A stretch of DNA of 64,000 nt from Heptranchias perlo (Eukaryota), in assembly GCF_035084215.1 (NCBI RefSeq), contig NC_090353.1, forward strand, positions 35,774,001 to 35,838,000. Direction: 5' to 3'. The notes beneath the pieces were generated by a model. The model saw only the letters and a program-made list of their open reading frames with translations. It ran no database searches and had not been told where the DNA came from. Positions 2,665 to 48,900 of the stretch are shown here, piece after piece. A program made the translations under genes and the position numbers. Numbering within the stretch: position 1 is the first letter of the stretch; the number at the start of each line of letters is the position of its first letter.

Positions 2665-3120
2665 ACAACAATAACAACCTGCATTTATATAGCGCCTTTA
2701 ACCGTAGTAAAACCAAGTCGCTTCACAAGAGCGATTATCAAACAAAATTTGACGCCAAGCCATATAAGGAGATATTAGGACAGGTGACCAAAAGCTTGTT
2801 CATAGGGATAGGTTTTAAGGAGAGTCTTAAAGGAGGAGAGAGAGGCGGAGAGGTCTAGGGAGGGAATTCCAGAGTTTAGGGCCTCGGCAGCTGAAGGCAC
2901 GGCCGCCAATGGTGGAGCGATGAAAATCGGGGATGGGCAAGGGGCCAGAATTGGAGGAGTGCAGAGATCTCGGAGGGTTGTAGGGCTGGAGGAGGTTTCG
3001 GAGATAGGGAGGGGGATGAGGTCATGGAGGGATTTGAAAACAAGGATGAGAATTTTAAAATTAAGGCGTTGCCTGAACAGGAGTCAGTGCAGGTCAGCGA
3101 GCACAGGGGTGATGGGTGAA
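2665..3120 (-). mobile_element. L2-like LINE 3' fragment; related copies ~20145-20415 (+) and ~22660-23025 (-)
   Basis: Minus strand ends ggcgctatataaatgca(gtt)n and contains WNSLP..LRL..S.SSFKT-type coding remnants. Confidence 0.6.
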
Positions 3121-16180: not shown

Positions 16181-16525
16181 ACTCTTTAATATTCCTCTTG
16201 TTCAAGCAGTTATTTAAATCCTTTTTTAATTGCCTGGTTCGAGGGGGCATTGCTGGCACAGCAATAGTTGTCACATTTTCCTACATAACACAGTCACTGC
16301 ACCTCAACAAGTGGCTCCCCGTGTGACGCACATTTAAATATTTAGACAATGTGCTGTATAAATCCAGCCATTTCTTTCTGTCTCCCCTTTGGCCCCCAAT
16401 GCTTCGGATGTTCCCGGAGAGATACTTTCCTCTCCCCAACCATCGGAGTCCGCAGAGTCTTACCCAGAACGTGAAACTGGCCATCGCTCAGCATTACTTC
16501 TCAACATCTCAAGGAACTTTCAGAA

Positions 16526-18764: not shown

Positions 18765-18957
18765 TTTGATGTTGAAATTGTAAATTAATGTTGGAAAACA
18801 CAAATCTAACTGTCACTCAGGCACATTTCACTAAAAGAAAGGCAGGAAGAACTTTCTGCTCAGTGTGTCTATTTTAGATCCTGTCTGACTGCTGCCAGTT
18901 CCCTGCTCCTGCCTGAAGACTAACGTACATTTTTTTAGCTTCTGGGACTACTCCAGA

Positions 18958-27321: not shown

Positions 27322-27646
27322 CGGTGAGTAACCGATAAAGAACAATCAGTGGAAACGGTACCCAGTGTGCCTTGAGGAACGGGGGGAGAGGGAGGGAGGA
27401 GAGAGTGGGAGGGAGTGAGGGCAGGGAGGGACAGAGAGGGGGAGGGAGGGAGAGGGAGAAAGGGAGAGGCGGGAGAAAGGGAGGGGGAGGGACGGGGGAA
27501 AGGAGCGAGGGAGGGAGAGAGGAGAAGGGAGGGGGAGAGGTGGAGGGAGGGGACCGTGGGAGGAAGGAGGGATGGGGAGGTGGGAGGGTGAACTTGGGGA
27601 AGGGGAGAAAAAGCATTTTCAAAAACCTTTTCCTTATGTTGTACAG

Positions 27647-27790
27647 GACTCCGCCAAAATCCTGAGATGATGAAGTGGAACCGTCAACATGCAGAGATGG
27701 AGCAAACACTCCTGTGCCAAGAGATTGAGGCACTGTTGATTGGAGGAAGAAACTATGGTTCTGAGTCTCTGGGTAGCGATCCTCAATAAA
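27647..27790 (+). other. Putative terminal (3' UTR) exon 5 with polyadenylation signal; repeated near 43275 and 59138
   Basis: Donor cg|GTGAGT lies 2 nt after the exon-4 stop (27324). Acceptor ttccttatgttgtacag| precedes 27647. AATAAA at 27785-27790. Confidence 0.5.
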
Positions 27791-30498
27791 AAAACAAACG
27801 CAAACCTGCTTCTCTGTGACACGAATGGGAAACAAGATTCTTGTCCGTTACAACGGGAAGATTGTCCAGTGATGATATCGGAGTTGGTGGCTTTTCACTA
27901 AAGTTCAGATTCTCTTGGTTGCCAAACACCCTCTGGGAGGTTGTCACCCTCCCTGTCCTGTCCCACGTATCTTCATATTAAAAACTGAACCCTTTGTTTT
28001 GAAGAAGTGATGTTGGGCTGGTGATAACTGAGATCTGTAGCACAGGGCGGTTTCAGCCAAACTGGTTCAAGTAACAGTGACAGACAACAGCCTGCCCTAG
28101 AGTTAATATGAACGTCCGAGAGACGGAATGAGAAAAGGCCACTCAGTACATCAGTCTCACTCCTTCCACGGTCCATGTACACTCTACTCCATCACGGACT
28201 CTACCCACCCATTTAATGTCACGGAATGAGAAAAGGCCACTCAGTACATCAGTCTCACTCCTTCCAAGGTCCATGTACACTCTACTCCATCACAGACTCT
28301 ACTCGCCCATTTAATCTCCTCCCATAGCCCATGTAATGTCTACCCCATCATGTCAATGAATCAATCATTCTTTCCCAGTGTCTTAAGACTGTGACACTTC
28401 CTCACCCACCTCAATCCACCCTTCCTGCCTGCAGTCGACAGAATTTTAAAACCTAAGTTGACGTCCATTAACTACTGGACAACCCCTCTGCTCCTTCTCC
28501 TCCCTCCATGGTGTTGTGACCTGCACCCAGAGTCTTGGGCCTCTCAACAAAATCAGGGATTAATTACACAATTGACAGATGCCTCCAATTGGCAAAAAGG
28601 TTGCCTTGACGACATGGTAAGGGGAGGGGATCAATTTTACATTACTACTATTTGATTTCACTGGGGGTTTTTTTTTGCTATGACGGTTAGTGAGCTTGAA
28701 TAACACTGGGTGTTGAGGCTCAGAAACGTGGATTGGTTGGATTTTGCCAGCCTTTGTTTCACCGAGTCCTACACGAGGTTATAATGACCAGAAATGTCTA
28801 TCAGTATTTTTTTTTAGCAAAACATAAGATGTTATCCAGGAACCGAAAAAAAGTCAAAGAAAAGAATCTGACTTTTGCTTCTGTAACAGTTGGTGATGGA
28901 TTTAAGTGATGGGAAGCACTGGGATTTGACACTCTGTAAAGTGGGAGTTGTTACTGCTCCCCCACCCCTCTGATGTACATAGGAACAGGAGCAGGCCATT
29001 CAGGCCCTCAAGCCTGTTCCACATATTTATTGAGTGAGATGTATATTTGTTTCTCAAGAAAGACTAGAGAAGCCGGGATTGTTCTCCTTGGAGCAAAGAT
29101 GGTTAAGGGGAGATTTAATAGAGGTGTTCAAAATTATGAAGGGTTTTGATAGAGTAAATAAGGAGAAACTGTTTCCACTGGCAGGAGGGTCGGTAACCAG
29201 AGGACACAGATTGAAGATAATTGGCAAAGAACCAGGGTGATGATAAGGAGAATTTTTTTTACACAGCGAGTTGTTCTGATCTGGAATGCGCTGCCTGATA
29301 GGGCGGAGGGAGCAGATTCAATAATAACTTTCAAAAGGGGAATTGGATAAATACTTGAAAAGGAGACATTTTCAGGGCTGTGGGGAAAGAGCAGGGCAGT
29401 GGGACTAATTGGATAGCTCTTTTCAAACGGCCAGCTCAGGCACGACGGGCCAATTGGCCTCCTTCTGTGCCGTAAGATTCCATGATAGTTTGTACTAATC
29501 CAGAGACCAATTAACTTAACACCAAATGAATTGTGTGTCTATATCTTTAATATAATATTTCTGTGCATATTTGCAATAAAATATAACAATAAAACCAACT
29601 CTGGTGCCAAGTGAACAGATTTTGTTGCTTCCACTGGTCTCCAGATGAAACTCCAGTCATTCCGAAATCACATCCTGATCGGAGCAAAGCACGTGCCAGA
29701 GACACAGCGATCTGTGACTCCATGGGGTAATGTTCCAGCTTCAAGCTGCAGATTTGCGTTTGCCTGCAAGTAACAGAAACTCAGCACTTGTGGTTTACAA
29801 TTTTCTGACCACTCATTTTTAAATGTTTGAAAAACTGCGCAGCACATGCCCAAATTTCTGATTTGCGTTCCCAGTGAGCAAGGCAGTAAATCAACCCTCA
29901 AAAATAGATCATTGGGACCCCTCGATTACATTCGTTATTCTATATATAAAGCCCCCAAACCCTTTGGATAGATTCTCGCCTCAAGGACCTTGACCAGGGA
30001 GCCATTCCTCACGTGTGAGTCTGGACAGTGAGTGTCCAGATCCTAGGAGTGCAGAGGGCGCTCTGGAGAAAGTTGCCCTCACTGAACGCCCTACTTGTGT
30101 AGGATCTGTCGGGGTTATTGGACACCGAGCCACAGTGGGAGATCCTGCTGCTTTCCCCCCCTCCCCTTGCCCTGGAGCACAATGTAGGACCCTCACTACT
30201 GTGGTGGCTGAGATCAGCCACTTCTGCGCAGTCCAGTGGATTGAGCCCGGAACCTTCTTACTCCGCATGGCTTGGCATTGCACTGGCTCGTGCGTTTTCC
30301 AGCTGAGCCATTGGAAGGGGGAGATTGAACTTTCGATAATCTTTCACATTCAGGTCCTATTTCAATCTGAAGATGTGCGAACAGCAAGGTGGGAAATAAC
30401 GGAGAGCAATAAGCAGTTTCAGAAGGATTTAAAACTTTTAGGAAGTGGGCCAGTAGATGGCTGATGTCGTTCAATGTGAATAAACACAAATAATTAAA

Positions 30499-30673
30499 GC
30501 CCTGATTTCAACCTAACCCACCCAGTGAGAACCGGGAAGCAGTCGGGTCAGGCGCCAGATTTACACTGCACCTATTGGGGTCAATCAGGCGTAAAATCGG
30601 GTGGAGAGTGAATCGCCCGTCTGACCCGAACACGCCTTGATTCTCGCCTGGTCGGTTAGGTTGAAGTCGAGGC
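30499..30673. mobile_element. Short MITE-like inverted-repeat element; copies ~46185 and ~62047
   Basis: gccctgatttcaacctaacc ... ggttaggttgaagtcgaggc imperfect terminal inverted repeats. Confidence 0.4.
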
Positions 30674-31261
30674 GTTAATGTGGGAGCAAGGAATCGAAAT
30701 CTGAAATAAAAACAGAAAATTCTGGAAACATTTGGCAAATCAGGCAGCATCTGTGGAGAGAGATACAGAGTTAATGTTTCAAGTCTTTCCTCAGAACTGG
30801 AAGAAGTTAGAGATTTAACAGTTTATAAGCAAGTATAGAGCCAGAGAAAGGGGCGGGAGGGAGGAAAGAACAAAGGAGAAGGTCTGCGATAGGGTGGAGG
30901 ACAGGAGTGATTAAATGACAAAAGGGATGATGATGCAAGGCAAGGAGGGTGGGAATGGAACACGTAAAGAAGCAAAAGATGGGTCTAGAGAAGTAAATGG
31001 TTTCAGCAGAACCATTACCAGCACTTGCTGTCTGAGAAAGGGGGAATGGTGATTATGATCTGAAGCTCTTGAACTCAATGTTGAGTCTGGAAGGTTGTAA
31101 AGTCCTTGATCTCAAGAGGAAGTGACTCAAGCTGCTGTTGAGTTTCATTGGAACAGTGTAAGAGGCCGAGGACAGAGAGGTCAGAGTGGGAGTGGGACGG
31201 AGAATTAAAATGGCAAGCGACCGGAAGCTCAGGGTCACGCTTGCAGACTTAACGGAGGTGT

Positions 31262-31780
31262 GAAAAGGTGGGTAGGTGGGATTGAAGGATATGGTGAGAA
31301 GGTGGTTAGTTGGGATTGAGGGACATGGTGAGAGGGTGGGTAGGTGGGATTGAGGGAAGTGATGAGAAGGTGGGATTGAGGGACATGGTGAGAAAATGGG
31401 ATTGAGGGATATGGTCAGAAGGTGGGAGATGGGACTGGGGGATATTGTGAGAAGATGGGCAGGTGGGGCTGAGGGATAATGGGAGCAGGTGGGTAGATGG
31501 GGTTGAGGAATATGGTGAGGAGGTGGGTAGGTGGGATTGAAGGTTATAATGAGGAGGTAGGTAGGTGGTATTTGGTGAGCAGGTGGGTAGGTGAGGTTGA
31601 GGGATATGGTGAGGAGGTGGGTAGGTGGGATTGAAGGTTATAATGAGGAGGTAGGTAGGTGGTATTTGGTGAGCAGGTGGGCAGGTGAGGTTGAGGGATA
31701 TGGTGAGGAGGTGGGTAGGTGGGATTCAGGGATATGGTGAGGAGGTGATGAGAAGGATATTGTGGGATTATGAGAAGGTT
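31262..31780. repeat. Degenerate G-rich minisatellite (GAGGGATATGGTGAGGAGGTGGGTAGGTGGGATT) just upstream of the gene B promoter
   Basis: Visible tandem variants; repeated in units 2 and 3. Confidence 0.8.
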
Positions 31781-31798
31781 AGATTGATTTAGCGAAAA

Positions 31799-32028
31799 GG
31801 GACTTTTCCTGCTCCTAAAAATTCTTAAATTCTGAAGTGTGAGTCACCTAATAAGTCAAAGTAAGCAAGAGATTTCAGTGAGAAAAGTTCGTAACCCTGC
31901 AGGGGCTGGCTTGCTGCCACAAACTGAAATGGTTTGAATCATGTGATTTCCAGTAAATGTTGTTCTGTGGGGGGGGGTTTGAAGATTTATGATGATGAGA
32001 GTGATTTTCTGATAAGTAGAAACGTTTC
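31799..32028 (+). promoter_or_regulatory. Gene B promoter: NF-kB-like, AP-1, IRF-like, E-box and GAS motifs; copies near 47485-47715 and 63347-63578
   Basis: GGGACTTTTCC 31799-31809; TGAGTCA 31840-31846; AAACTGAAA 31921-31929; CATGTGAT-TTCCAGTAA (GAS 31948-31956); GAAACGTTTC 32019-32028. Confidence 0.5.
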
Positions 32029-32113
32029 AATACGAAGGCAGCCTGGTGTAGTACAGCTAGTGCAGAGTAGGTACAGGGACCGGTGCTGTGTGGATCAGGC
32101 GGGGCCATTCTAG

Positions 32114-35100
32114 ATGAATAAATCTGACAGTACGATGGGTTCCTCAGGACGCAGAGATTGTATTTTAAAATATTTGGTCGGTTTACTGAGCCTGGTGGCT
32201 TTGATTTTTTTGTCTTCGTTTGTGTATGTGATGAACTCGGACCCTGTCCTCGAGCTGAAACAGTGTGAAAAGCGACTGCAAAACGAAACGTCTATGTTAA
32301 ATGAATGTGAGCAGGCACGGGGGGAGAGCCAGTCCTTATTAAACAACTGCCAGGCTCAATCGGTGAGTAGTAAAACCATCGACAGTCCGTGTGTTATTGA
32401 TTCTAGTAAAGGAAGCCCTTTAAGGGATGATATTTGTTGCTAAAAGTGAAGCAGCTCTTTAGTAAAACTCGGAGGCTCTGTGAAAAAGTCAATTTTTGTT
32501 CATTTTATTTGCAAGTACATAACACATACGTTCAGTAGTGAAGTGGTTATGTTACTGGACTAGTAACCTAGAGACCTGGAATAATTAATCCAGAGTGAAC
32601 GGGAGTTCAACTCCCACCAGGGCAGCTTAAGAATTTGAATTCAGTTTTAAAAAACATCTGGGAAATAAAAAGCTGGTCTCAGTAAAAGTGTCGATAGTCT
32701 TCAGTATACTGGGATGTTATGTTCTCCGTGGCTAACCTGTCTGAACACCAACGACACCTTTGATTGCTGTGATCGTCTCCCAGCCGAGGTGTTGTCGAAA
32801 ACTTAATTACCTATTATACACAATGCATTAACTCCAAACACTTATTTTCAGACAAGTAAGAATTTATTAAGAAACTTGTACAAGTTGGAAGTGTACCTCA
32901 AACAATGGTTGAGGCTACGTCTTCTTCGAACAAAGAAAGCAGTTATCTTTTATACACTTAATTCAGTAATGTCTGTCTATCATTGACTATGGGCGTACAT
33001 GTACACTCTCATTGGTTCAAGTGGTTAGTCAATCAAAAATAGGGAACCCACCCTCTGACATCCGTAGCTCATTCCTGTTTAGGCACTAGGCTTCACAGGC
33101 ATGAGAGAACACTACCTCCCTAAATTACAAGCTGGTTAATCAGTAGGGCTGAAGTCAGAATCAAGGCTACATGGCCTGTCAAGAAACTGTATTCTCATTA
33201 TATTATAAGCCAGCAATACCCTTATCTGAACGGGGGGAGGGGGGGAGGCCAGACAGTACCAAGCACCTGGACAGCCAACTTAATTATCAACGTACCAAAG
33301 ACAATTGTGTCTTTCTGTGTGTGTGTGTGAAATTGTAACTACCCTATGTATGGGAGTCAAGGAGTTAACATTGGTCAAATACCCATCATGCTTTTCTCTT
33401 TTTTTATGGTCAAGTAACTGTTCACGTATTTCTACATTAATGTGGTCTTTATAATTTTCCACAGTGTGATAGGGGGCAGTTGGAAAGATTATCTGTAATC
33501 ACCAGGCATTGTTCTCTGATTATATATGCTGTGCGTTTTTAGAACCCTTCACTCACCTGACGAAGGAGGAAAGCTCCGAAAGCTTGTGATTTAAAATAAA
33601 AAGGCATGGATGTTAGGGAACTTGGGGAAATAAATAGTGATGTCTTGAGGAGTGTACATATTACAGAGGGGGAGGTGCTGGAAGTCTTAACGCGCATCAA
33701 GTTAGATAAATCTCCGGGACCTGATGAAATGTATCCCAGGACGTTATGGGAGGTTAGGGAGGAAATTGCGGGTCCCCTAGCAGAGATATTTGAATCATCG
33801 ACAGCTACAGGTGAGGTGCCTGAAGATTGGAGGGTAGCAAATGTTGTGCCTTTGTTTAAGAAGGGCGGCAGGGAAAAGCCTGGGAACTACAGACCGGTGA
33901 GCCTGACATCTGTAGTGGGTAAGTTGTTAGAGGGTATTCTGAGAGACAGGATCTACAGGCATTTGGAGAGGCAGGGACTGATTAGGAACAGTCAGCATGG
34001 TTTTGTGAGAGGAAAATCATGTCTCACGAATTTGATTGAGTTTTTCGAAGGGGTAACCAAGAAGATAGATGAGGGCTGTGCAGTAGACGTGGTCTACATG
34101 GACTTTAGCAAAGCCTTTGACAAGGTACCGCATGGTAGGTTGTTACATAAGGTTAAATCTCACAGGATCCAAGGTGAGGTAGCCAATTGGATACAAAATT
34201 GGCTTGATGACAGAAGACAGAGGGTGGTTGTAGAGGGTTGTTTTTCAAACTGGAGGCCTGTGACCAGCGGTGTGCCTCAGGGATCGGTGCTGGGTCCGCT
34301 GTTATTTGTTATTTATATTAATGATTTGGATGAGAATTTAGGAGGCATGGTTAGTAAGTTTGCAGATGACACCAAGATTGGTGGCATTGTGGACAGTGAA
34401 GAAGGTTATCTAGGATTGCAACGGGATCTTGATAAATTGGGCCAGTGGGCCGATGAATGGCAGATGGAGTTTAATTTAGATAAACGTGAGGTGATGCATT
34501 TTGGTAGATCGAATCGGGCCAGGACCTACTCCGTTAATGGTAGGGCATTGGGGAGAGTTATAGAACAAAGAGATCTAGGAGTACAGATTCATAGCTCCTT
34601 GAAAGTGGAGTCACAGGTGGATAGGGTGGTGAAGAAGGCATTCAGCATGCTTGGTTTCATTGGTCAGAACATTGAATACAGGAGTTGGGATGTCTTGTTG
34701 AAGTTGTACAAGACATTAGTAAGGCCACACTTGGAATACTGTGTACAGTTCTGGTCACCCTATTATAGAAAGGATATTATTAAACTAGAAAGAGTGCAGA
34801 AAAGATTTACTAGGATGCTACCGGGACTTGATGGTTTGACTTATAGGGAGAGGTTGGATAGACTGAGACTTTTTTCCCTGGAGAGTAGGAGGTTTCAGGG
34901 TGATCTTATAGAAGTCTATAAAATAATGAGGGGCATAGATAAGGTCGATAGTCAAAATCTTTTCCCAAAGGTAGGGGAGTCTATAACGAGGGGGCATAGA
35001 TTTAAGGTGAGAGGGGAGAGATACAAAAGGGTCCAGAGGGGCAATTTTTTCACTCAAAGGGTGGTGAGTGTCTGGAACGAGCTGCCAGAGGCAGTAGTAG

Positions 35101-38100
35101 AGGCGGGTACAATTTTGTCTTTTAAAAAGCATTTGGACAGTTACATGGGTAAGATGGGTATAGAGGGATATGGGCCAAGTGCAGGCAATTGGGACTAGCT
35201 TAGTGGTATAAACTGGGCGACATGGACATGTTGGGCCGAAGGGCCTGTTTTCATGTTGTAAACTTCTATGATTCTATGAAAACTGTTGGGACTATAACCT
35301 AGTGTTGTGCAAGTCCTTATCTCAGTAAAAGTGACTGTGAAGCTGTCAGGTTGTCGAAAAAACCCAACTGGTTCATTGATATCCTTTAGTGTCCATTAGT
35401 TTCCTGCATTACCACAGTGACTAAACTTCAAAAGAATACTTTTATACTGCCTTTCACGCCCTGAGGTCGTGAAAGGCGATATATAAATGCAAGTAAATCC
35501 CACACGGACTGCAGCGGTTCAAGAGGGCGGCTCACCACCACCTTCTCAAGGGCAATTAGGGATGGGCAATAAATGCCAGCCTCGCCAGTGATGCACACAT
35601 CCCTTGAACAAATTTTTAAAAAGTCTTTCTTTTTAGGGAAGGAAGCCTGCTGTTCTTACTCGGTCCGGCTTATATTTGGCTCCAGTCCCTACACCAACGT
35701 GGTTGAATCTTAACTGCCCTCTGAAGTAGTCTAGCAAGCCCTTCAGTTGTGAAAGGAGAGCGAGGGATGGGCAATAAATGCCGGGCTTGCCAGCGATGGC
35801 CACAACCCAAGAATGAATTTTTTAAAAACATAAACATAAATAACAGTGTTGACCACTTTATTGACACAGTGTGAATCTGAGCAACGCAACACTGAAAAGT
35901 TTCAGCTTCAATCGCTCTTTACCCAGAGAGTGGTGAGAATGTGGAACTCGTTACCACAAGGAGTAGTTGAGGTGAATAATGTGGATGCCTTTAAGAGGAA
36001 GCGAGATAAACACATGAGGGAGAAAGGAATAGAAGGCTATGCTGATCGAGTTAGATCAAGAGGGTTGGGAGGAGGCTCGAGTGGAGCATAAACACCAGCA
36101 TGGACCTTTTGGGCCGAATGGCCTGTTTCTGTGCTGTACATTCTATGTAATTTGATGTAATCCCCAGCCTGTGCTGACTTAGCTCATCTCAGCCTAGGTC
36201 AAGTCAAGAGCAAAACAACAATTAGTCTTCCTGCTCTAGGGGTTCTGAAGAGGGTTAAAAAAAAATCAGCCTCGATTCCCGCTCCTGATGGGCATCTGGC
36301 GCCAATTTTAACAGTAGGTGCACAACAGGTCCTCCTATAGTTACTCACGTGACGCCTTTTGAAAGTTATTACTGAATCTGCTTCCTCCGCCCTTTCAGGC
36401 AGCGCAATCCCGATCATAACAACTCACTGCATTAAAAAAAATTCTCCTCATCTCCCCTCTGGTTCTTTTGCCAATTACCTTGGCCAGGATTTTGACCCGG
36501 AGCCGAGAAGGAGGCGGAGGCGGGGTGGGGGTCGAAACGCGGATGGAGACCCGGAAGTACGGGTTTGCCGGACACCCTTACAATTTTTTTTGTTGGTTTG
36601 CCGTCCGACAGGCCGGCCTGATTGACAGGCTGACCTCAGTCAGACCGGAGCAGAGCAAGGAAGAGGATATGAAAGGGTAAGAGTTCAGGTAAGTCTTGGA
36701 TTGTATCGAATGGGGGGGTGGGGGGGGTGGGCATGGGTGAGCATGGGGGCACCGGGGGCATGGAGCAGAGGGCACCAGGGGCACATGGGTACGGGGGCAT
36801 CGGTGGGCATGGGGGCAATCTACACCTACCTGCTCTTTCCAGCAGAGGTCCCTGGGTAAAGATCAGGAGCAGGAACCCCTGGGTTGATTTTATTACTCTC
36901 CCTAACTCAGGGGAACGGTGGCCATTAATAGTGTCTCAACTGTAGACTAGGGGTGGGAGGGGCTGAAACCTGGGAATTTCCTGATCCGTGTTAGCTCAGT
37001 GCCACATACTTTATATTGAATTTCAGACCCCCTCCATCCCACACAGTATTATTCTTTGCCATGGCTCGATACCATGGACGCAGTTCATTAAAACAAGCTC
37101 AAATTACAAGCTCTAAAAACAAAAACACTCACAACTGCAACATGATTTTCCAGCCAGACTTGCTGCCTAACTGCATTGGTGTGGTTTTATTTTTGTTGAA
37201 ACCCTTTGATCACACTGGTAACGCTATGACTTGCTTTTGGTCTTTGCCCTACTTAAAACGAGAAATGAATCTATCTTCTCAGGACCCCGACTGGGTTCAG
37301 ATCAATTCGGTTTCTGTCTCTCCAGGCAGAGAAACATGGATTACTCACCAAAACGGGTTAACTCATTCTTTTGTCAGGATCTGGACTAGTGTTGGGGAGG
37401 GAGGGGCAACTAGGTGTCAGCTGTGGCTCTGTGGGCAACAATTCTGAGTCCGATGGTTGTGGGTTTAAATCCCACATTAGAGACTTGAGCACAAAATCTA
37501 AGCTGACACTCCTGGTGCAGCACTGAGAGAGTGCTGCACTGTCAGAGGTGCCGCCTTTTGGATGAGACGTTAAATCAAGGCCCTGTCTGCCCTCTCAAGT
37601 GGACGTAAAGGGTCCCACGCCATTATTATGAGGGAGAGCAGGTGAGTTCTCCCCGGTGTCCTGGGGCCGATATTTATCTCTCAACCAACATCACTAAAAA
37701 AACAGATTATCTGGTCATTATCACGTTGCTGTTTGTGGGATCTTGCTGTGCGCAAATTGGCCTCTCTGTTTCCTACATTACAACAGTGACTACACTTCAA
37801 AAGTACTTCACTGGCTGTAAAGCGCTTTGGGACGTCCTGAGGTTGTGAAATGTGCTATATAAATTCAAGTCTTTCTTTCCTTTCCATTTTTCTTAAAAAT
37901 ACCAAAACAAAAACAATTCTGGAAAGACTGGGTGGAACTCTGTGCTGGAACCGGGCTTCAAGTCCAGCCCAGACCGATGGGTGAAATTCTCCTCTGTCTG
38001 CTGGTTTTAAAGGTCAATGTTGATTGGCCAGACTCAACCCAATTCTCTGTGGTCACCAAGCCCACAGCACAGAATGGCTAGTGTAGGAAATGGAAAAGTA

Positions 38101-41100
38101 GTGGATGTTAAGGTTAGGGCTGAGACATTGTTCAGATAGTGTAGAGGGAGCTTTACTCTGTATCTAACCCTGTACCTGCCCTGGGAGTGTTTGATGGAAC
38201 AGTGTAGAGGGAGCTTTACTCTGTATCTGACCCTGTACCTGCCCTGGGAGTGTTTGATGGAATAGTGTAGAGGGAGCTTTACTCTGTATCTAACCCGTGC
38301 TGTACCTGCCCTGGGAGTGTTTGGTGGGACAGTGTGGAGAGAGATTTACTCTGTATCTAACCTGTGCTGTACCAAACCGTTTGGTGCTAACAATGAGCGC
38401 CCAAAATGAGGAAGTGTTTCATCTCTCAGCAATGAACCTTGATAAGCACAAAAATTCACAAACTACTTGTGACGTATATATTTTTTTTCCAGGTTGCCCT
38501 GAGTGAGAACATTGTCACATTAGAGAAGAAGCTAAAAGATCTTGAACTCCTCAATACCAACCTGAACAATGAACAAGAGCAACTGAAAGGTTAGAGGCGC
38601 AGAGATCTCGGAGGGTTGTGGGACTGGAGGAGGTTACAGAGGTATGGAGGGGCGAGAGCCATGGAGGGACAGACTCGCGGATAGAACCCTCCAAGATCCA
38701 TCGGCCAAATCGCTGCTCTTTATTTTGGACACGGATCCCCACTCACAGCGAGGGAAAGAATCTCCAACCAGCCCACTCCAGGGATTCCTGTTTCTGTAGA
38801 ATAAACCTGGCCAAATTGGACTGAGGAAAATTGCCAAATTGGAATTGCAGAGATTCCCATTCCCAGTGACCCCTGCAGGACGCCTGAGGACATCAGGCTT
38901 GGCTGTGATGCCCCCAAGGTTGAATAGCCTATTGACTCTCACTATCTGGGCTCAGGCGCCAAGAATGGGCAACTTTGGGGTGCTATTTGATCCATGTGGA
39001 ACTATTATCCCATCAGTAGAGGATGGGTGAGAATTAGAATCATAGAATGGTTACAGCACAGAAGGAGGCCATTCGGCCCATCGAACCTGCGCCGGCTCTA
39101 TGTAAGAGCAATCCAGTTAGTCCCATCCCCTGCTCTTTCTCCATAGCCCTCGAAATTCTTTCCCTTCAAGTATTTATCCAATTCCCTTTTGAAAGCCACG
39201 ATTGAATCTGCTTCCACCGCCCTTTCAGGCAGCACATTCCAGATCATAACTACTCGCTGCGTAAAAAAGCTTTTCCTCGTGTCGCCTTTGGTTCTATTGC
39301 CAATCACCTTAAATCTGTGTCCTCTGGTTCTTGACCCTTCTGCCAATGGGAACAGTTTCTCTTTATTTACTTTATCTAAACCCTTCATGATTTTGATCAC
39401 CTCTATCAATCTCCTCTCAAACTTCTCTGCTCTAAGGAGCACAACCCCAGCTTTTCCAGTCTATCCACGTAACTGAAGTCCCTCAACCCTGGAACCATTC
39501 TAGTAAATCTTTTCTGCACCGTCTCTAAGGCCTTCACATCTTTCCTAAAGTGCGGTGCCCAGAATTGGACACAATACTCCAGTTGTGGCTGAACCAGTGT
39601 TTTATAAAGGTTCATCATGATTTCCTTGCTTAGGAAAAAAGAAATAAAGGCTTTAACTGACTCAGACCCCTGCTTACTTTGTCTACGATTTCAACAGGTC
39701 TTTATTCTTACTTTATCAGATGTTCTTCAACATTGGGAAGTGAAGTTCTCCGATCTGGAAGAGAAACAAGAAAACCAGGAAGAGGAACTTAATAGAGCGA
39801 CTAAACGTCTGGATGAGAAGCAGAGAGAAGTTGAAGAGTGGATTGAGAATCACTCGAGGCTGAATCAGCAACTGTAAGAGGCTGTGTTTTTGCAAGATAA
39901 AGTTTTATGTTGAGAAACGTTGGTGAAAGGCTCGAGGCCCGTCAATCGGGACGCAGCAGCAAGAAAATGGAGACTCAGATATGTACTTGCAAAGGAAAAT
40001 TTCACTAAGGGGAAGGAGCAGGGGGGAGTGGGACTAATTGGAAAGCTCTTTTAAAGAGCTGGCACAGGCACGGTGGGCCGAATGGCCTTTCTCCGTGCTG
40101 TATGATTCTATGAGAGAAGATGAGGTAAAAGACAGAAAGACTTGCATTTATATAGCGCCCTTTCACGACCTCAGGACGCCCTAAAGCGCTTTACAGCCAC
40201 TTCACGTTTTAAGTGTAGTCACTGTTGTGATGTAGGAAACGCTGCAGCCAATTTGCACACAGCAAGATCCCACAAACAGCAATGAGATAATGACCAGATA
40301 ATCTGTTTTTAATGATGTTGGTTGAGGGATAAATATTGGCCCAGGACACCAGGGTGAATTCCCCTGCTCTTCTTCAAATAGTACCATGGGATCTTTTATG
40401 TCCACCTAAGAGGGCAGACAGGGCCCTCGGTTTAAAGTCTCATCAGAAAGACAGCACCCCCGGCAGTGCAGCATTCCCTCAGTACTGGCACTGAAGTGTC
40501 AGCCTGGATTATGGGCTCAAGTTACTCTAGAGTGAGGCTTGAACCCACAACCTTCTGAGTCAGAGGTGAGAGAGCTACCCACTGAGCCAAGCTGTAGTTG
40601 ACACCAGGCTGGATAAGCCACCAAGAGTTAGAAGGGTAAAAATTTACCCAGGCCTGTGTTTGGGATCCAGAATCGGCTCTGCACAGACCCCCAAACCGGC
40701 CGGCCTGAAATTGAGCCTTAAAACGGGCACAGCGAGGTCCAATTTCTACCCTGAGTCTTCAAGATCAGAAAACAATTTATTCCAGTGCATACTGACCCCC
40801 TACTTGACTCTAGGTGGGTTTAAAAACCTTACGATTGTCAGAGAAAGCGAAGACTGAGGGAAGTTAGGGGTACCATAGTTTTGAGGTGCTGGGAAAGAAT
40901 AATGAGCTTGAGTGGGAGGCACTGTGATATCAACACATTGAGGAATCAGGGAGGAGGAAGGGTGTGTAGGACAGGGGGTTTGGAGATTAGAGGGAAGAAG
41001 AGTGGAAAAGTTATCGGAGCAATGACCGTAGCGTCAATGACCGTAGCGACAATGACCGTAGCGTCAATGACCGTAGTGTCAATTACCATAGCGACAATGA

Positions 41101-42949
41101 CCGTAGCGACAATGACCATAGTGTCAATGTCCATAGCGTCAATGACCGTAGTGTCAATGACCATAGTGTCAATGACCGTAGCGACAATGACCGTAGTGTC
41201 AATTACCATAGCGTCAATGACCGTAGCGACAATGACCATAGCGACAATGACCATGACGAACTCTGGATTCTTTTACCCTCAGTCTGGTTCAGCAAACACT
41301 GAGTCGAATACACCTTTAAAGTTCAACAGAATTTTATTATCCGCGGGGCTTAGTCTATAGTATCGACATTGACTCCTGACAGAGTCTTGTCAAGTCCAAT
41401 AGAGCAAGCAAGGTTCCATACAGAGGTTTACACATTTATACAGTTACAACAGGACTATGAGCATGATTAACAATGATCAACACCAATCATAAGCGGTTCA
41501 TGTGTAGGCCATGCCTAGGTTACATGAGGGCAGGCCAATCACAGGTAGTACACGTGCATGATCATGCCGCGGTTACAACAAGAGAGGGATGCATCCTTAT
41601 CTCCTAACTACGGAATGTTCCTTCGGCCTTGTACTGTTATTGCTTAACTTCAGAATGTTCCAGCTGCACAGATACCCCAACCAGACCCCTAATCTTATCA
41701 AGTCTTGTCAACTGTTGAGACATCACAGGACTTACACATAAAGAGCTAAGCACACAAACATGAGGCCGAAAAGGGGCCCATTGTTCTACTTCTAGCTAGT
41801 AGGCTACTAACTAACTGTTGCTTAACCGCAATGCTACTTGACAAGTAGGTATTCTACTGAAAGATTGCCACGTAGGCATTCTCAACCATAGCGTCAATGA
41901 CCGTAGTGTCAATTACCATAGCGACAATGACCGTAGTGTCAATGGCCATCGCGTCAATGACCGTAGCGTCAATGACCATAGCTTCAATGACCGTAGCGAC
42001 AATGACCGTAGCGTCAATGACCGTAGCGGTGTCAATAAAACCAAGATGAGAAAGACTACAATACAGAAGGAACTTGCATTTATGTAGCGCCTTTCATCTC
42101 CTCAGGATGTCCCACAGTCAACTAATTACTTTTGAAGTGCAGTCACTGTTGTTATGTAGGCAATCCCGGCAGCCATTTTCAGACCATGATTCCACAAACA
42201 GAAATGAAATGCAAGACCAGTTAATGTGTTTTTGGAGATGTTGGATGAGAGAGGCATATTGACCAGGACACCGAGAAAACTCACCGCTCCTCTCTGAAAT
42301 ATTGCCATGGGATAGCACTCCCTCAGTACTGCACTGGAGTATTAGCCCAGACAATGTGCTCACGTCCTGGAGTCAGACTGAACACACAACTTTCAGACCC
42401 AGAGGCAAGAGTGCTACCAACTGACAACTAAAGGAATTAATGGAGGGCATCAGGAAAGGGTTTAATAGTGGAGATGTGATTGATGGATGAATATTCTGAA
42501 GTTTTGCTCAATCCCCTTTGAGCAGCAGGGAGTGTTTAAACAGAACTTTCCCTTCGGAAGTTAAATGAGTGGCTCGAGTCCATGATAGGGTAACGTGTAC
42601 ATAAGGTATAGAAGGGGATTAAATGGGTGGGTAGAGTCCATCAGAGGGTAGAGTGTACATTGGCTATGGGAGAAGATTAAATGGGTGGGTAGAGTCCATG
42701 ACAGGGTAGAGTGTTCACAGGCTGTGGGAGGAGTGGGCGGATGGCCTTTTCTCGTTCTGTGTTTTACGTTCCTATCATTCTTAATATTGAAAATAAATTC
42801 TGACTTTGTCTTAATTTACTTCTTACAGAAACAAGTGTTGGAATCAGCCAGTTAGGTATCATGGAGAATGCAGTTGGTTCACCGTTTTGATTGGCATTGG
42901 TGGTTCTTGCCTGGGTTTCGGGTCATGCTCTAATAATAAATGCAGTTAA
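32114..42949 (+). CDS. BST2: Tetherin/BST2-like chimeric gene copy 1; join(32114..32362,38493..38589,39720..39873,42829..42949), 206 aa
   Basis: Exon 1 MNKSDSTMGSSGRRDC-ILKYLVGLLSLVALIFLSSFVYVM-NSDPVLELKQCEKRLQNETSMLNECEQARGESQSLLNNCQAQS|GTGAGT has a short tail, a TM, three ectodomain Cys (51, 65, 79) and an NET sequon. Exon 2 (97 nt, ttttccag|) encodes VALSENIVTLEKKLKDLELLNTNLNNEQEQLK, ending G|GTTAGA. Exons 3-4 match gene A. The symbol is assigned from architecture only. Confidence 0.72.
32793..33463 (-). mobile_element. Solo LTR (671 bp) with 4-bp TSD GTGT; copy 48480..49150
   Basis: gtgt|TGTCGAAAA...TTTTCCACA|gtgt (8/9 terminal inverted repeat). Minus-strand CCAAT, TATAAAA near 32950 and AATAAA near 32865. 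Confidence 0.75.
33553..33589 (+). ncRNA. Minimal type I hammerhead-ribozyme-like motif; copy 49240..49276
   Basis: TCAC-CTGACGA-A-GGAG(gaaag)CTCC-GAAA-GCTT-GTGA: conserved core, stem II GGAG/CTCC, stem I TCAC/GTGA, palindromic AAGCTT in place of stem III. Confidence 0.5.
33600..35278 (+). mobile_element. CR1-clade LINE, 5'-truncated (ORF 33606..35198), in intron 1 of gene B
   Basis: Same family as 16526-18678 with a nearly identical RT translation; ATTCTATG tail. Confidence 0.95.
38139..38372. repeat. 63/67-bp tandem repeat, reverse complement of the 21843 family; longer copy ~53876-54235
   Basis: GTGTAGAGGGAGCTTTACTCTGTATCTAACCCTGTACCTGCCCTGGGAGTGTTTGATGGAACA; unit 2 has two extra 63-bp copies. 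Confidence 0.9.
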
Positions 42950-45900
42950 CGGTGAGTAACCGATAAAGAACAATCAGTGGAAACGGTACCCAGTGTGCCT
43001 TGAGGAACGGGGGGAGAGGGAGGGAGGAGAGAGTGGGAGGGAGTGAGGGCGGGGAGGGACAGAGAGGGGGAGGGAGGGAGAGGGAGAAAGGGAGAGGCGG
43101 GAGAAAGGGAGGGGGAGGGACGGGGGGAAGGAGCGAGGGAGGGAGAGAGGAGAAGGGAGGGGGAGAGGTGGAGGGAGGGGACCGTGGGAGGAAGGAGGGA
43201 CGGGGAGGTGGGAGGGTGAACTTGGGGAAGGGGAGAAAAAGCATTTTCAAAAACCTTTTCCTTATGTTGTACAGGACTCCGCCAAAATCCTGAGATGATG
43301 AAGTGGAACCGTCAACATGCAGAGATGGAGCAAACACTCCTGTGCCAAGAGATTGAGGCACTGTTGATTGGAGGAAGAAACTATGGTTCTGAGTCTCTGG
43401 GTAGCGATCCTCAATAAAAAAACAAACGCAAACCTGCTTCTCTGTGACACGAATGGGAAACAAGATTCTTGTCCGTTACAACGGGAAGATTGTCCAGTGA
43501 TGATATCGGAGTTGGTGGCTTTTCACTAAAGTTCAGATTCTCTTGGTTGCCAAACACCCTCTGGGAGGTTGTCACCCTCCCTGTCCTGTCCCACATATCT
43601 TCATATTAAAAACTGAACCCTTTGTTTTGAAGAAGTGATGTTGGGCTGGTGATAACTGAGATCTGTAGCACAGGGCGGTTTCAGCCAAACTGGTTCAAGT
43701 AACAGTGACAGACAACAGCCTGCCCTAGAGTTAATATGAACGTCCGAGAGACGGAATGAGAAAAGGCCACTCAGTACATCAGTCTCACTCCTTCCACGGT
43801 CCATGTACACTCTACTCCGTCACGGACTCTACCCACCCATTTAATCTCCTCCCATAGCCCGTGTACACTCTACTCCATCACGGACTCTACCCACCCATTT
43901 AATGTCACGGAATGAGAAAAGGCCACTCAGTACATCAGTCTCACTCCTTCCAAGGTCCATGTACACTCTACTCCATCACAGACTCTACTCGCCCATTTAA
44001 TCTCCTCCCATAGCCCATGTAATGTCTACCCCATCATGTCAATGAATCAATCATTCTTTCCCAGTGTCTTAAGACTGTGACACTTCCTCACCCACCTCAA
44101 TCCACCCTTCCTGCCTGCAGTCTACAGAATTTTAAAACCTAAGTTGACGTCCATTAACTACTGGACAACCCCTCTGCTCCTTCTCCTCCCTCCATGGTGT
44201 TGTGACCTGCACCCAGAGTCTTGGGCCTCTCAACAAAATCAGGGATTAATTACACAATTGACAGATGCCTCCAATTGGCAAAAAGGTTGCCTTGACGACA
44301 TGGTAAGGGGAGGGGATCAATTTTACATTACTACTATTTGATTTCACTGGGGGTTTTTTTTTGCTATGACGGTTAGTGAGCTTGAATAACACTGGGTGTT
44401 GAGGCTCAGAAACGTGGATTGGTTGGATTTTGCCAGCCTTTGTTTCACCGAGTCCTACACGAGGTTATAATGACCAGAAATGTCTATCAGTATTTTTTTT
44501 TAGCAAAACATAAGATGTTATCCAGGAACCGAAAAAAAGTCAAAGAAAAGAATCTGACTTTTGCTTCTGTAACAGTTGGTGATGGATTTAAGTGATGGGA
44601 AGCACTGGGATTTGACACTCTGTAAAGTGGGAGTTGTTACTGCTCCCCCACCCCTCTGATGTACATAGGACCAGGAGCAGGCCATTCAGGCCCTCAAGCC
44701 TGTTCCACATATTTATTGAGTGAGATGTATATTTGTTTCTCAAGAAAGACGAGAGAAGCCGGGATTGTTCTCCTTGGAGCAAAGATGGTTAAGGGGAGAT
44801 TTAATAGAGGTGTTCAAAATTATGAAGGGTTTTGATAGAGTAAATAAGGAGAAACTGTTTCCACTGGCAGGAGGGTCGGTAACCAGAGGACACAGATTGA
44901 AGATAATTGGCAAAGAACCAGGGTGGTGATAAGGAGAATTTTTTTTACGCAGCGAGTTGTTCTGATCTGGAATGCGCTGCCTGAAAGGGCGGAGGGAGCA
45001 GATTCAATAATAACTTTCAAAAGGGGAATTGGATAAATACTTGAAAAGGAGACATTTTCAGGGCTGTGGGGAAAGAGCAGGGCAGTGGGACTAATTGGAT
45101 AGCTCTTTTCAAACGGCCAGCTCAGGCACGACGGGCCAATTGGCCTCCTTCTGTGCCGTAAGATTCCATGATAGTTTGTACTAATCCAGAGACCAATTAA
45201 CTTAACACCAAATGAATTGTGTGTCTATATCTTTAATATAATATTTCTGTGCATATTTGCAATAAAATATAACAATAAAACCAACTCTGGTGCCAAGTGA
45301 ACAGATTTTGTTGCTTCCACTGGTCTCCAGATGAAACTCCAGTCATTCCGAAATCACATCCTGATCGGAGCAAAGCACGTGCCAGAGACACAGCGATCTG
45401 TGACTCCATGGGGTAATGTTCCAGCTTCAAGCTGCAGATTTGCGTTTGCCTGCAAGTAACAGAAACTCAACGCTTGTGGTTTACAATTTTCTGACCACTC
45501 ATTTTTAAATGTTTGAAAAACTGCGCAGCACATGCCCAAATTTCTGATTTGCGTTCCCAGTGAGCAAGGCAGTAAATCAACCCTCAAAAATAGATCATTG
45601 GGACCCCTCGATTACATTCGTTATTCTATATATAAAGCCCCCAAACCCTTTGGATAGATTCTCGCCTCAAGGACCTTGACCAGGGAGCCATTCCTCACGT
45701 GTGAGTCTGGACAGTGAGTGTCCAGATCCTAGGAGTGCAGAGGGCGCTCTGGAGAAAGTTGCCCTCACTGAACGCCCTACTTGTGTAGGATCTGTCGGGG
45801 TTATTGGACACCGAGCCACAGTGGGAGATCCTGCTGCTTTCCCCCCCTCCCCTTGCCCTGGAGCACAATGTAGGACCCTCACTACTGTGGTGGCTGAGAT

Positions 45901-48900
45901 CAGCCACTTCTGCGCAGTCCAGTGGATTGAGCCCGGAACCTTCTTACTCCGCATGGCTTGGCATTGCACTGGCTCGTGCGTTTTCCAGCTGAGCCATTGG
46001 AAGGGGGAGATTGAACTTTCGATAATCTTTCACATTCAGGTCCTATTTCAATCTGAAGATGTGCGAACAGCAAGGTGGGAAATAACGGAGAGCAACAAGC
46101 AGTTTCAGAAGGATTTAAAACTTTTAGGAAGTGGGCCAGTAGATGGCTGATGTCGTTCAATGTGAATAAACACAAATAATTAAAGCCCTGATTTCAACCT
46201 AACCCACCCAGTGAGAACCGGGAAGCAGTCGGGTCAGGCGCCAGATTTACACTGCACCTATTGGGGTCAATCAGGCGTAAAATCAGGTGGAGAGTGAATC
46301 GCCCGTCTGACCCGAACACGCCTTGATTCTCGCCTGGTCGGTTAGGTTGAAGTCGAGGCGTTAATGTGGGAGCAAGGAATCGAAATCTGAAATAAAAACA
46401 GAAAATTCTGGAAACATTTGGCAAATCAGGCAGCATCTGTGGAGAGAGATACAGAGTTAATGTTTCAAGTCTTTCCTCAGAACTGGAAGAAGTTAGAGAT
46501 TTAACAGTTTATAAGCAAGTATAGAGCCAGAGAAAGGGGCGGGAGGGAAGAAAGAACAAAGGAGAAGGTCTGCGATAGGGTGGAGGACAGGAGTGATTAA
46601 ATGACAAAAGGGATGATGATGCAAGGCAAGGAGGGTGGGAATGGAACACGTAAAGAAGCAAAAGATGGGTCTAGAGAAGTAAATGGTTTCAGCAGAACCA
46701 TTACCAGCACTTGCTGTCTGAGAAAGGGGGAACGGTGGTTATGATCTGAAGCTCTTGAACTCAATGTTGAGTCTGGAAGGTTGTAAAGTCCTTGATCTCA
46801 AGAGGAAGTGACTCAAGCTGCTGTTGAGTTTCATTGGAACAGTGTAAGAGGCCGAGGACAGAGAGGTCAGAGTGGGAGTGGGACGGAGAATTAAAATGGC
46901 AAGCGACCGGAAGCTCAGGGTCACGCTTGCAGACTTAACGGAGGTGTGAAAAGGTGGGTAGGTGGGATTGAAGGATATGGTGAGAAGGTGGTTAGTTGGG
47001 ATTGAGGGACATGGTGAGAGGGTGGGTAGGTGGGATTGAGGGAAGTGATGAGAAGGTGGGATTGAGGGACATGGTGAGAAAATGGGATTGAGGGATATGG
47101 TCAGAAGGTGGGAGATGGGACTGGGGGATATTGTGAGAAGATGGGCAGGTGGGGCTGAGGGATAATGGGAGCAGGTGGGTAGATGGGGTTGAGGAATATG
47201 GTGAGGAGGTGGGTAGGTGGGATTGAAGGTTATAATGAGGAGGTAGGTAGGTGGTATTTGGTGAGCAGGTGGGTAGGTGAGGTTGAGGGACATGGTGAGG
47301 AGGTGGGTAGGTGGGATTGAAGGTTATAATGAGGAGGTAGGTAGGTGGTATTTGGTGAGCAGGTGGGCAGGTGAGGTTGAGGGATATGGTGAGGAGGTGG
47401 GTAGGTGGGATTCAGGGATATGGTGAGGAGGTGATGAGAAGGATATTGTGGGATTATGAGAAGGTTGGATTGATTTATCGAAAAGGGACTTTTCCTGCTC
47501 CTAAAAATTCTTAAATTCTGAAGTGTGAGTCACCTAATAAGTCAAAGTAAGCAAGAGATTTCAGTGAGAAAAGTTCGTAACCCTGCAGGGGCTGGCTTGC
47601 TGCCACAAACTGAAATGGTTTGAATCATGTGATTTCCAGTAAATGTTGTTCTGTGGGGGGGGGGTTTGAAGATTTATGATGATGAGAGTGATTTTCTGAT
47701 AAGTAGAAACGTTTCAATACGAAGGCAGCCTGGTGTAGTACAGCTAGTGCAGAGTAGGTACAGGGACCGGTGCTGTGTGGATCAGGCGGGGCCATTCTAG
47801 ATGAATAAATCTGACAGTACGATGGGTTCCTCAGGACGCAGAGATTGTATTTTAAAATATTTGGTCGGTTTACTGAGCCTGGTGGCTTTGATTTTTTTGT
47901 CTTCGTTTGTGTATGTGATGAACTCGGACCCTGTCCTCGAGCTGAAACAGTGTGAAAAGCGACTGCAAAACGAAACGTTTATGTTAAATGAATGTGAGCA
48001 GGCACGGGGGGAGAGCCAGTCCTTATTAAACAACTGCCAGGCTCAATCGGTGAGTAGTAAAACCATCGACAGTCCGTGTGTTATTGATTCTAGTAAAGGA
48101 AGCCCTTTAAGGGATGATATTTGTTGCTAAAAGTGAAGCAGCTCTTTAGTAAAACTCGGAGGCTCTGTGAAAAAGTCAATTTTTGTTCATTTTATTTGCA
48201 AGTACATAACACATACGTTCAGTAGTGAAGTGGTTATGTTACTGGACTAGTAACCTAGAGACCTGGAATAATTAATCCAGAGTGAACGGGAGTTCAGCTC
48301 CCACCAGGGCAGCTTAAGAATTTGAATTCAGTTTTAAAAAACATCTGGGAAATAAAAAGCTGGTCTCAGTAAAAGTGTCGATAGTATTCAGTATACTGGG
48401 ATGTTATGTTCTCCGTGGCTAACCTGTCTGAACACCAACGACACCTTTGATTGCTGTGATCGTCTCCCAGCCGAGGTGTTGTTGAAAACTTAATTACCTA
48501 TTATACACAATGCATTAACTCCAAACACTTATTTTCAGACAAGTAAGAATTTATTAAGAAACTTGTACAAGTTGGAAGTGTACCTCAAACAATGGTTGAG
48601 GCTACGTCTTCTTCGAACAAAGAAAGCAGTTATCTTTTATACACTTAATTCAGTAATGTCTGTCTATCATTGACTATGGGCGTACATGTACACTCTCATT
48701 GGTTCAAGTGGTTAGTCAATCAAAAATAGGGAACCCACCCTCTGACATCCGTAGCTCATTCCTGTTTAGGCACTAGGCTTCACAGGCATGAGAGAACACT
48801 ACCTCCCTAAATTACAAGCTGGTTAATCAGTAGGGCTGAAGTCAGAATCAAGGCTACATGGCCTGTCAAGAAACTGTATTCTCATTATATTATAAGCCAG

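Follow-up and report, generated by a model that had tools for sequence, protein, structure and literature searches.

We describe two fusion genes in the genome of the sharpnose sevengill shark, Heptranchias perlo, which lie in a 64,000-nt window of RefSeq assembly GCF_035084215.1 (contig NC_090353.1, positions 35,774,001 to 35,838,000, forward strand). Each joins exons 1 and 2 of a gene that we call B, in frame, to exons 3 and 4 of an upstream neighbor, gene A, and the two stand between intact A and intact B. The assembly genuinely contains the fusion genes, and they are spliced in RNA of one animal. B is a candidate tetherin (BST2), and we assign a probability of roughly 0.55 to the reading that the two spliced, in-frame fusion genes encode a likely tetherin-like dimer acting as a weaker variant tether. 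The DNA and RNA anatomy described below is held with far greater confidence. Positions are those of the window, with numbers above 64,000 continuing the same count beyond its end. The neighborhood examined comprised ∼750 kb of unbroken assembly; it begins 70 kb upstream of the window and extends to the PLVAP gene.

Architecture of the locus and splicing of the fusion genes

The locus consists of A exons 1 and 2, three copies of a unit containing A exons 3 to 5 and B exons 1 and 2, and then B exons 3 and 4, all on the forward strand. Its products are an intact A, two B (exons 1 and 2)/A (exons 3 and 4) fusions, and an intact B. The units, U1 (22969..38596; 15,628 bp), U2 (38597..54459; 15,863 bp), and U3 (54460..70519; 16,060 bp, the window part ending at 64000), each run from A intron 2 to B intron 2 and contain the distal part of A intron 2, the five exons, and the intergenic DNA (15.6 to 16.1 kb). 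By self-BLAST, 22969-28220, 38597-43848, and 54460-59711 correspond to one another at 99.5 to 99.6% identity. B exon 2 and A exon 3 each returned three matches in a search of the 3.25-Gb genome, all at this locus (lower bounds).

In gene A, exon 1 (18958..19248; phase 0) carries the ATG, a hydrophobic helix, and the start of a coil. It is followed by exon 2 (22558..22654; 97 nt, phase 0/1), the native copy of exon 3 (24092..24245; 154 nt, phase 1/2), and exon 4 (27201..27323), which encodes a hydrophobic, cysteine-rich C terminus. A fifth, noncoding exon is predicted at 27647..27790, with AATAAA at 27785. The first fusion has B-type exons 1 (32114..32362) and 2 (38493..38589; 97 nt), a junction (38590..38599), and A-type exons 3 (39720..39873) and 4 (42829..42951, with the stop). 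In the second fusion, the corresponding features are at 47801..48049 (carrying the substitution S60F), 54356..54452, 54453..54462, 55583..55736, and 58692..58814 (with the stop). Native B starts with exon 1 at 63664..63912 and continues beyond the window with exons 2, 3, and 4 at 70416-70512, 73249-73360, and 74638-74751. A and B share this exon plan: exon 2 is 97 nt in both, the phases run 0/1/2, and translation ends within exon 4, just 2 nt short of its donor. A stop so close to this donor is expected to let the transcript escape nonsense-mediated decay.

The spliced models of A, the first fusion, the second fusion, and B are letter-for-letter identical to four RefSeq-derived proteins (P0004, P0003, P0002, and P0001, respectively). 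The RefSeq entries are XP_067824623.1 for A (220 residues), XP_067824624.1 and XP_067824632.1 for the fusions (206 residues each), and XP_067824625.1 for B (189 residues), and their names derive from Homer, a leucine-rich-repeat protein, and TRAK1. Both fusions are thus already in the automatic annotation but are unrecognized there, under uninformative names, and the shark tetherin candidate is likewise hidden under a misleading one.

The junctions retain the history of the rearrangement. At the point of the break, the sequence is GGAGGA GCG CAGAGA in native A, GTTAGAG GCG TTTATC in native B, and GTTAGAG GCG CAGAGA in both chimeric joins. The joins thus consist of 7 nt of B intron 2 with its GTTAGA donor, then the 3-bp microhomology GCG (38597-38599 in the first junction), then A intron 2. 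The break falls 7 to 10 nt past B exon 2 versus ∼315 nt past A exon 2. A LINE-tail (long interspersed nuclear element) repeat in A intron 2 (22665..23041, reverse strand), which we take to be L2-like and whose reverse strand translates as the C terminus of a LINE open reading frame 2-like protein, is intact across 22969 and cut short at both junctions. Twelve other copies of this repeat in 264 kb (among 25 nonself matches) cross the equivalent of 22969 by at least 30 nt on each side, one of them at 2666-3032, while the chimeric join is spanned only by the junctions themselves (2 of 50 matches). The last B exon 2 runs into a different intron and then to B's own exons 3 and 4, and other sharks carry separate A and B; the junction is therefore derived, and exons 3 and 4 are native to A.

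A preliminary description of the window, made from the sequence alone, had anticipated much of this structure. The unit start at 22969 in A intron 2 (self-BLAST and junction alignment), the continuity of the repeat there and its decapitation at 38597 and 54460, the two 97-nt exons of phase 0/1, the splicing of the last B copy to its own exons beyond 64000, and the existence of separate A and B in related species (A-type proteins in four other sharks and B-type proteins in four) all held. Its unit end, 7 nt into B intron 2, is correct in position and is refined here to 7 to 10 nt, inside the microhomology. Exon 5, which it had counted among A's native exons along with exons 3 and 4, codes for nothing. 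Its proposal that each new unit yields an intact fusion holds as to frame and splicing; because both joins are identical, however, a single junction must have formed and been copied afterward.

Homologous recombination at the junction was rejected, as just 3 bp are shared and the breaks lie at nonequivalent positions relative to exon 2. Because the breaks are not at homologous positions, we infer that the first event was a single nonhomologous, microhomology-mediated duplication. The second fusion would then have arisen by unequal crossing-over or conversion between units. The break spared the B donor by 7 nt and left the whole B upstream region in place; the join works because of this sparing and because A and B share their exon plan.

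Across 15,435 aligned columns away from gaps, U1, U2, and U3 carry 34, 24, and 39 private substitutions, respectively. With 19 tandem-tract sites removed, these numbers are 29, 23, and 26, and pairwise distances are 0.36 to 0.40%. In the first 2.2 kb of the unit, U1 is the odd one at 11 of 13 differing sites, with U2 matching U3 (permutation P = 0.008), a pattern expected from crossing-over or conversion between units. In the next 2.4 kb, outside tandem tracts, U2 instead matches U1. Haplotype stitching could also produce this alternation, and the distances between copies are near allelic levels, as would be seen if there were one real fusion and the third unit were the other haplotype assembled in tandem. 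We consider such an inflated copy number very unlikely, given that private changes are similar over the last 11 kb (18, 22, and 19), indels between units reach 299 bp, and the examined region contains no N. Two further uses of these data were abandoned. Dating by a 0.4% distance at 7e-10 per generation (the epaulette shark rate) yields ∼3 million generations (1.4 to 14 million over the published rate interval), which is too loose in view of conversion and ancestral polymorphism. DNA contig depth (22.8 to 26.6 over the A part and 12.5 for the contig leaving at 38599) was not used as a measure of copy number, since it does not by itself gauge copies and came without a single-copy control.

To follow splicing, positions 38400-40000 were compared with assembled contigs from one of four DNA runs (X1) and three of four RNA-type runs (X5, X6, and X7) of the same organism. 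A splice from 38589 to 39720, which skips the new 1,130-nt GT..AG intron (38590-39719), was found in all three RNA-type runs and not in the DNA run. The joint, placed at 38587>39718 (cut +2), lies in contigs with depths of 1956.7 (X5), 1033.9 (X6), and 49.8 (X7), against 8 to 12 for intron contigs in X5 and X6. Loose ends place B exon 1 before exon 2 in X5 and X6 and A exon 4 after exon 3 in X5. The short side of the joint holds 25 to 28 B-specific letters plus 2 shared letters. A exon 2 is excluded as the source of the former, as it agrees with B exon 2 at only 20 of the last 30 nt. The exon-limited cover and the spliced joints fit RNA. Runs of other organisms matched 0.07 to 0.24 of the words, probably through the repeat. 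Thus, the RNA joint foreseen in the preliminary description exists in contigs from one sample, and its concern that the GTTAGA donor might be unused is dispelled.

Some features of these data weigh against the reading. At 27 to 30 letters, the short side is just below the 31-letter bar for bridging, although in a contig built from 31-mers no more than 30 letters can precede a fork, which would account for this length. All four runs come from one sample, possibly the assembly source, and the RNA type of X5 to X8 was guessed by the tool, no run being on record as RNA. Among the pieces listed from the assembled contigs of the one DNA run, none bridges 38597; the preliminary description's caution that the junction might be missing from raw reads is not borne out by the assembled contigs, with that reservation. 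If the assembly were wrong and the DNA junction did not exist, the RNA joint would have to come from back-splicing, trans-splicing, or a retrocopy. We regard this as exceedingly improbable: a 39-Mb contig carries the junction twice, with a defined microhomology; joint contigs are much deeper than intron contigs (50 to 1957 versus 8 to 12); and, counter to a retrocopy, the DNA run lacks the spliced joint.

Gene B as a tetherin candidate and its sister gene A

B encodes a 20-residue tail, a membrane helix, a coil, and a hydrophobic C terminus, a plan conserved in five of five sharks. Judged by hydropathy, the N-terminal helix of B and the fusions spans residues 21 to 39 (Kyte-Doolittle [KD] value, 2.49). 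All seven ectodomain cysteines of B share one heptad position, and its single ectodomain sequon, N57, is invariant in all five B proteins. These proteins are also hydrophobic to the last residue (KD of the last 12 residues, 1.76 to 2.37; 2.0 in this shark), with small residues ∼25 positions from the end, a pattern that on hydropathy resembles the glycosylphosphatidylinositol (GPI) type. The top Atlas feature match for B is a BST2-like cluster (score, 0.94; 208/256 features; PF16716 on 88% of members).

Gene order is informative as well. A CILP-family exon lies 77 kb upstream of A, NDUFA13 lies further upstream, and PLVAP is ∼600 kb downstream. From the human gene order, the CILP-family gene is presumably CILP2. 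A single 223-codon open frame between it and A (-43617 to -42949, reverse strand) presumably represents C6orf120/UPF0669. Between B and PLVAP are frames at 136323-136793 and 190131-190454 that we take to be heparan sulfate 2-O-sulfotransferase-like and MFSD14-like, and the tetherin candidate is consequently not adjacent to PLVAP. Outside mammals, low sequence homology is expected and tetherins are defined by position and plan (PMC10617486); situated between a CILP-family gene and PLVAP, the locus therefore occupies the position used to define them. Taken together, Atlas features, plan, and position suggest that B is quite probably a tetherin orthologue.

Other observations count against this assignment. 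The Pfam BST2 model (PF16716) matched none of B, A, the fusions, or 10 other relatives, nor anything in the genome, and no BST2 chain was among the solved-structure matches; both searches returned only generic coiled-coil matches below the cutoff. Twenty-two of the 30 Atlas matches for B are unnamed chordate clusters, and PLVAP itself scores 0.81. The B tail has no YxY motif, with one tyrosine before the helix (P0001), and no motif resembling an interferon-stimulated response element was found in the 1 kb preceding the start codon of either gene. PLVAP is ∼600 kb away with other genes intervening, and it is A, not B, that lies nearest the CILP gene.

B could accordingly be a different member of that cluster (tetherin/TMCC(aT)/PLVAP), one whose membrane role is nonantiviral, which would leave the fusions unrelated to restriction. 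The missing Pfam match, the unnamed Atlas clusters, and the gene order agree with this view, which we nonetheless judge unlikely. B alone has the full tail-helix-coil-GPI-type plan, in five of five sharks, the non-mammalian definition does not depend on sequence, and the stretch from the CILP gene to PLVAP yielded no additional exon of either family. Family profiles detected no additional paralogue at a meaningful score in this ∼750 kb; a helix-plus-coil heuristic found only the first exons of A and B, but it also missed the PLVAP control, so a TMCC(aT) gene could escape it.

Two residues distinguish this species' B. Native B has Gly88 (70430), where both fusions (38506 and its U2 copy) and four of four other sharks have Glu, and it is thus the parental copy that carries the derived residue. 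At N106, in exon 2, the second sequon of four of four other sharks has been lost.

A and B are old, distant paralogues, with 23% identity over 107 aligned residues and the same exon plan. A lacks an informative Atlas match, a further point against the reading. Its end carries a conserved hydrophobic motif, rich in glycine and cysteine, and then 2 to 8 further residues; G206, C208, G210, F211, and G212 are invariant in four of four proteins, and the hydrophobic character is conserved in five of five A-type proteins. By hydropathy, this C terminus is not of the GPI type seen in B; its hydrophobic stretch is weaker and ends in a polar tail with cysteines. In plan, A resembles TMCC(aT)/CCDC194, with a helix and a coil, no GPI signal, and a tetherin candidate next to it, although cleavage of its N-terminal helix as a signal peptide is also conceivable and no search returned a CCDC194 sequence. 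A frameshifted reading of A exon 4, in which the hydrophobic run is longer and exon 5 is open, was rejected because the annotated C-terminal motif is conserved in four other sharks. Upstream of the annotated ATG, the A frame is open for 23 codons (18889-18957), with a pyrimidine tract and an AG ∼20 nt before the ATG; a possible upstream exon may extend the tail and add a tyrosine-containing motif.

Predicted properties of the fusion protein

The fusion proteins keep B residues 1 to 115, including the tail, the helix, C51, C65, C79, and N57, and are 98% identical to B over this part. They lose C128, C149, and C156 (invariant in five of five B proteins), C163, and the GPI-type tail, and they gain the A coil, the sequon N159 (from A exon 3), C170, and the A end, which gives an ectodomain with sequons N57 and N159. 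Cysteines 51, 65, 79, and 170 share one heptad position, and the heptad register is unbroken across the join at 115/116. A two-copy model of residues 40 to 175 yielded a parallel, in-register dimer (score, 0.50, versus 0.01 for the best control) with agreement between runs in 100% of contacts, a predicted local distance difference test (pLDDT) value of at least 87, and C51, C65, and C79 each paired with itself. In microbes, 21 of 30 solved pairs and 0 of 23 single chains attained the mark set for this score; among animal pairs, 7 of 16 did. The predicted dimer supports pairing of the fusion.

We favor the view that the fusion would act as a weaker variant tether. The B tail and helix would insert it as a type II membrane protein, and a continuous coil (residues 44 to 171) would dimerize in parallel via C51, C65, and C79. 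A's conserved hydrophobic end would likely provide a second, non-GPI membrane contact; with the GPI-type tail replaced by this cysteine-rich end, the tether would likely be weaker. It is likely that the fusion protein is made and reaches the surface. Anchoring of the A end in a membrane is slightly more likely than not, whereas measurable restriction of virus release is a tentative expectation and somewhat doubtful. The preliminary description had attributed to each fusion B's promoter, tail, membrane helix, and three cysteines together with A's coil and anchor; the tail, helix, and cysteines are indeed kept, while the "anchor" amounts to a less hydrophobic segment followed by a polar, cysteine-containing tail.

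Against double anchoring, the last 12 residues of the fusion are polar (KD, -0.21), and its best 15-residue stretch reaches only 1.69 and is followed by 8 residues; on hydropathy, the fusion proteins do not end in a GPI-type signal. Human tetherin is said to require its GPI anchor, and the GPI-less sheep tetherin B is described as much weaker (PMC9599465). In addition, coiled coils may pass the dimer model by their likeness to solved coils. PLVAP is reported to restrict once given a GPI signal (PMC9599465), and reptile TMCC(aT) to restrict without one (PMC10617486). Because tetherin is described as sequence independent in its action (PMC10617486), a change in anchoring or antagonist sensitivity is likelier than the new restriction specificity envisaged in the preliminary description.

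The main rivals to the weaker tether are a single-anchor damper of B and a neutral passenger. In the former, the A end would lie outside the membrane, and the fusion, as a GPI-less tetherin, would pair with native B and either dampen it or absorb viral antagonists. Such pairing is compatible with the 98% identity to B over residues 1 to 115 and with the polar C terminus of the fusion. GPI-less tetherin still enters budding virions (PMC3715405), and a short human tetherin isoform is described as dominant negative on signaling (PMC3989765). The conservation of A's hydrophobic end in all five A-type proteins speaks against this role, and we consider it unlikely.

Other sharks, related systems, and mobile elements

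A search of the fusion protein against 1.84 billion representatives gave 11 matches at an E value of ≤0.001. These were B-type proteins from four other sharks (Pristiophorus, Carcharodon, Scyliorhinus, and Chiloscyllium), A-type proteins from Pristiophorus, Mustelus, and Stegostoma, A and B themselves, a lizard protein with the same plan, and a repetitive protein, which was disregarded. A profile search (7 matches among 3825 candidates) added an A-type protein from Hemiscyllium and a 264-residue model from Chiloscyllium plagiosum. With leave-one-out profiles, both halves of all 10 parental-type proteins fell in the same family, while the fusion (P0002) had a B front and an A back. No B-front/A-back protein was found among the other-shark matches, which is weak evidence, as one could hide in 50%-identity clusters.

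The reciprocal arrangement, an A-type exon 1 coil followed by B-type exons 2 to 4, is present in models from two bamboo sharks, XP_043577410.1 (P0016; C. plagiosum) and XP_072450482.1 (P0017; Chiloscyllium punctatum). In these models, a 42-residue segment of the A exon 1 coil is repeated three times. The front of P0016 is 87% identical to Hemiscyllium A and its back is 88% identical to Chiloscyllium B; P0017 is without the A-type helix, and an older C. punctatum model (P0009) has a normal B front. As the Chiloscyllium fusions are known as gene models alone, they could be read-through products or annotation merges. They hint at repeated anchor swapping at the locus and, if true, would give the sister gene a GPI-type tail.

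A bolder view is that the tetherin locus is a recurrent module-swapping device. Compatible phases and heptad register would let rearrangements repeatedly create double-anchored tethers, with the sevengill B-front/A-back form exchanging GPI for a protein anchor and the bamboo shark A-front/B-back form giving the sister gene a GPI tail. Such natural counterparts of artificial tetherins would restrict viruses and be selected for altered antagonist-facing surfaces. We give this extension little credence.

Comparison across species also bears on whether the fusion is a neutral passenger, i.e., a young copy-number change, perhaps a polymorphism, that is transcribed through the inherited B promoter and has no selected function. 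Another shark is reported to have a nucleotide diversity of 0.002 (PMC10587355), about half the distance between units, and expressed chimeras are described as common products of tandem duplication (PMC5460883). The RNA comes from one sample only, and the other-shark matches include no protein of this composition. Both coding differences among the copies are nonsynonymous, a point against the favored reading, although two are too few to show constraint. In contrast, both fusion frames are intact, exons 3 and 4 show 0 changes among the three copies (few being expected), the junction was copied again, and the reciprocal fusion is modeled in two bamboo sharks. On this balance, neutrality appears rather unlikely. 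If the fusion is inert, the locus holds a clean but ordinary chimeric gene from a tandem duplication.

Among known systems, tetherin/BST2 resembles B in its tail, membrane helix, cysteine-linked coiled coil, GPI-type tail, and CILP-PLVAP position. Duplicates of tetherin are described in sheep, cattle, opossum, wallaby, and vesper bats, so that growth in copy number and GPI-less variants are known (PMC9599465, PMC10617486). As far as these sources describe them, they are whole-gene duplicates, deletions, or splice variants, whereas the shark copies are fusions with a sister that is 23% identical over 107 residues. TMCC(aT)/CCDC194 and PLVAP resemble A as helix-plus-coil proteins beside tetherin without a GPI-type tail. 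Unlike TMCC(aT)/CCDC194, A has a conserved hydrophobic, cysteine-rich motif at its end and is situated on the CILP side of B. Tetherin's sister genes are reported to gain restriction with a GPI signal, and reptile forms to restrict without it (PMC10617486, PMC9599465). In the artificial tetherin of Perez-Caballero (2009), unrelated modules work if two anchors and a flexible coil are kept (PMC3989765); that protein was engineered with a true GPI signal, while the shark fusion arose in nature and has a second anchor that is putative.

The route to the fusion also has precedents. In glycophorin Dantu (DUP4), two GYPB-A hybrids likewise arose in a cluster of host surface-protein genes by joining the front and back of neighboring paralogues (bioRxiv 10.1101/083634). 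The Dantu junction is described as lying in sequence identical between the genes, full GYPB is lacking, and protection has been shown (bioRxiv 10.1101/083634). The shark break, unlike that of Dantu, is nonhomologous with 3 bp shared, and both parents are intact. Chimeras of Drosophila yakuba form by the same route, from duplications that end in two adjacent genes (PMC5460883). Each shark fusion likewise has a 5′ part from the downstream gene and a 3′ part from the upstream gene, with both parents intact on either side. Unlike the D. yakuba case, the shark genes share exon phases and heptad register and form a seamless rod.

In the literature searched, we found no shark tetherin or such fusion; Heusinger (2015), Blanco-Melo (2016), or their supplements may already list cartilaginous-fish tetherins. 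The route is therefore known, and the instance, a likely tetherin fused to an old sister gene with its anchor swapped, appears undescribed. Tetherin is thought to work by shape, not sequence, and to share its origin with its sister genes; engineered swaps supply most of the support for this idea. The shark locus provides natural ones, with a candidate shark tetherin, a sister gene, an expressed fusion, and a modeled reciprocal fusion in another lineage, and thus a natural test of whether a non-GPI tail can replace a lipid anchor.

Two minor observations came from the same material. The lizard protein noted above (P0013; XP_061456667.1, Rhineura floridana) is unnamed, matches the fusion weakly (E value, 3.7e-4), and has a tail-helix-coil-hydrophobic-tail plan; it is possibly an unannotated tetherin. 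Young LINE copies, 97 to 98% alike, with a reverse transcriptase-like frame and presumably of the CR1 type, are present at 16512-18678, 33600-35279, and 49287-50972 and, beyond the window, at 65150, 90738, and 105616. One of these copies sits in B intron 1 and was duplicated along with the unit.

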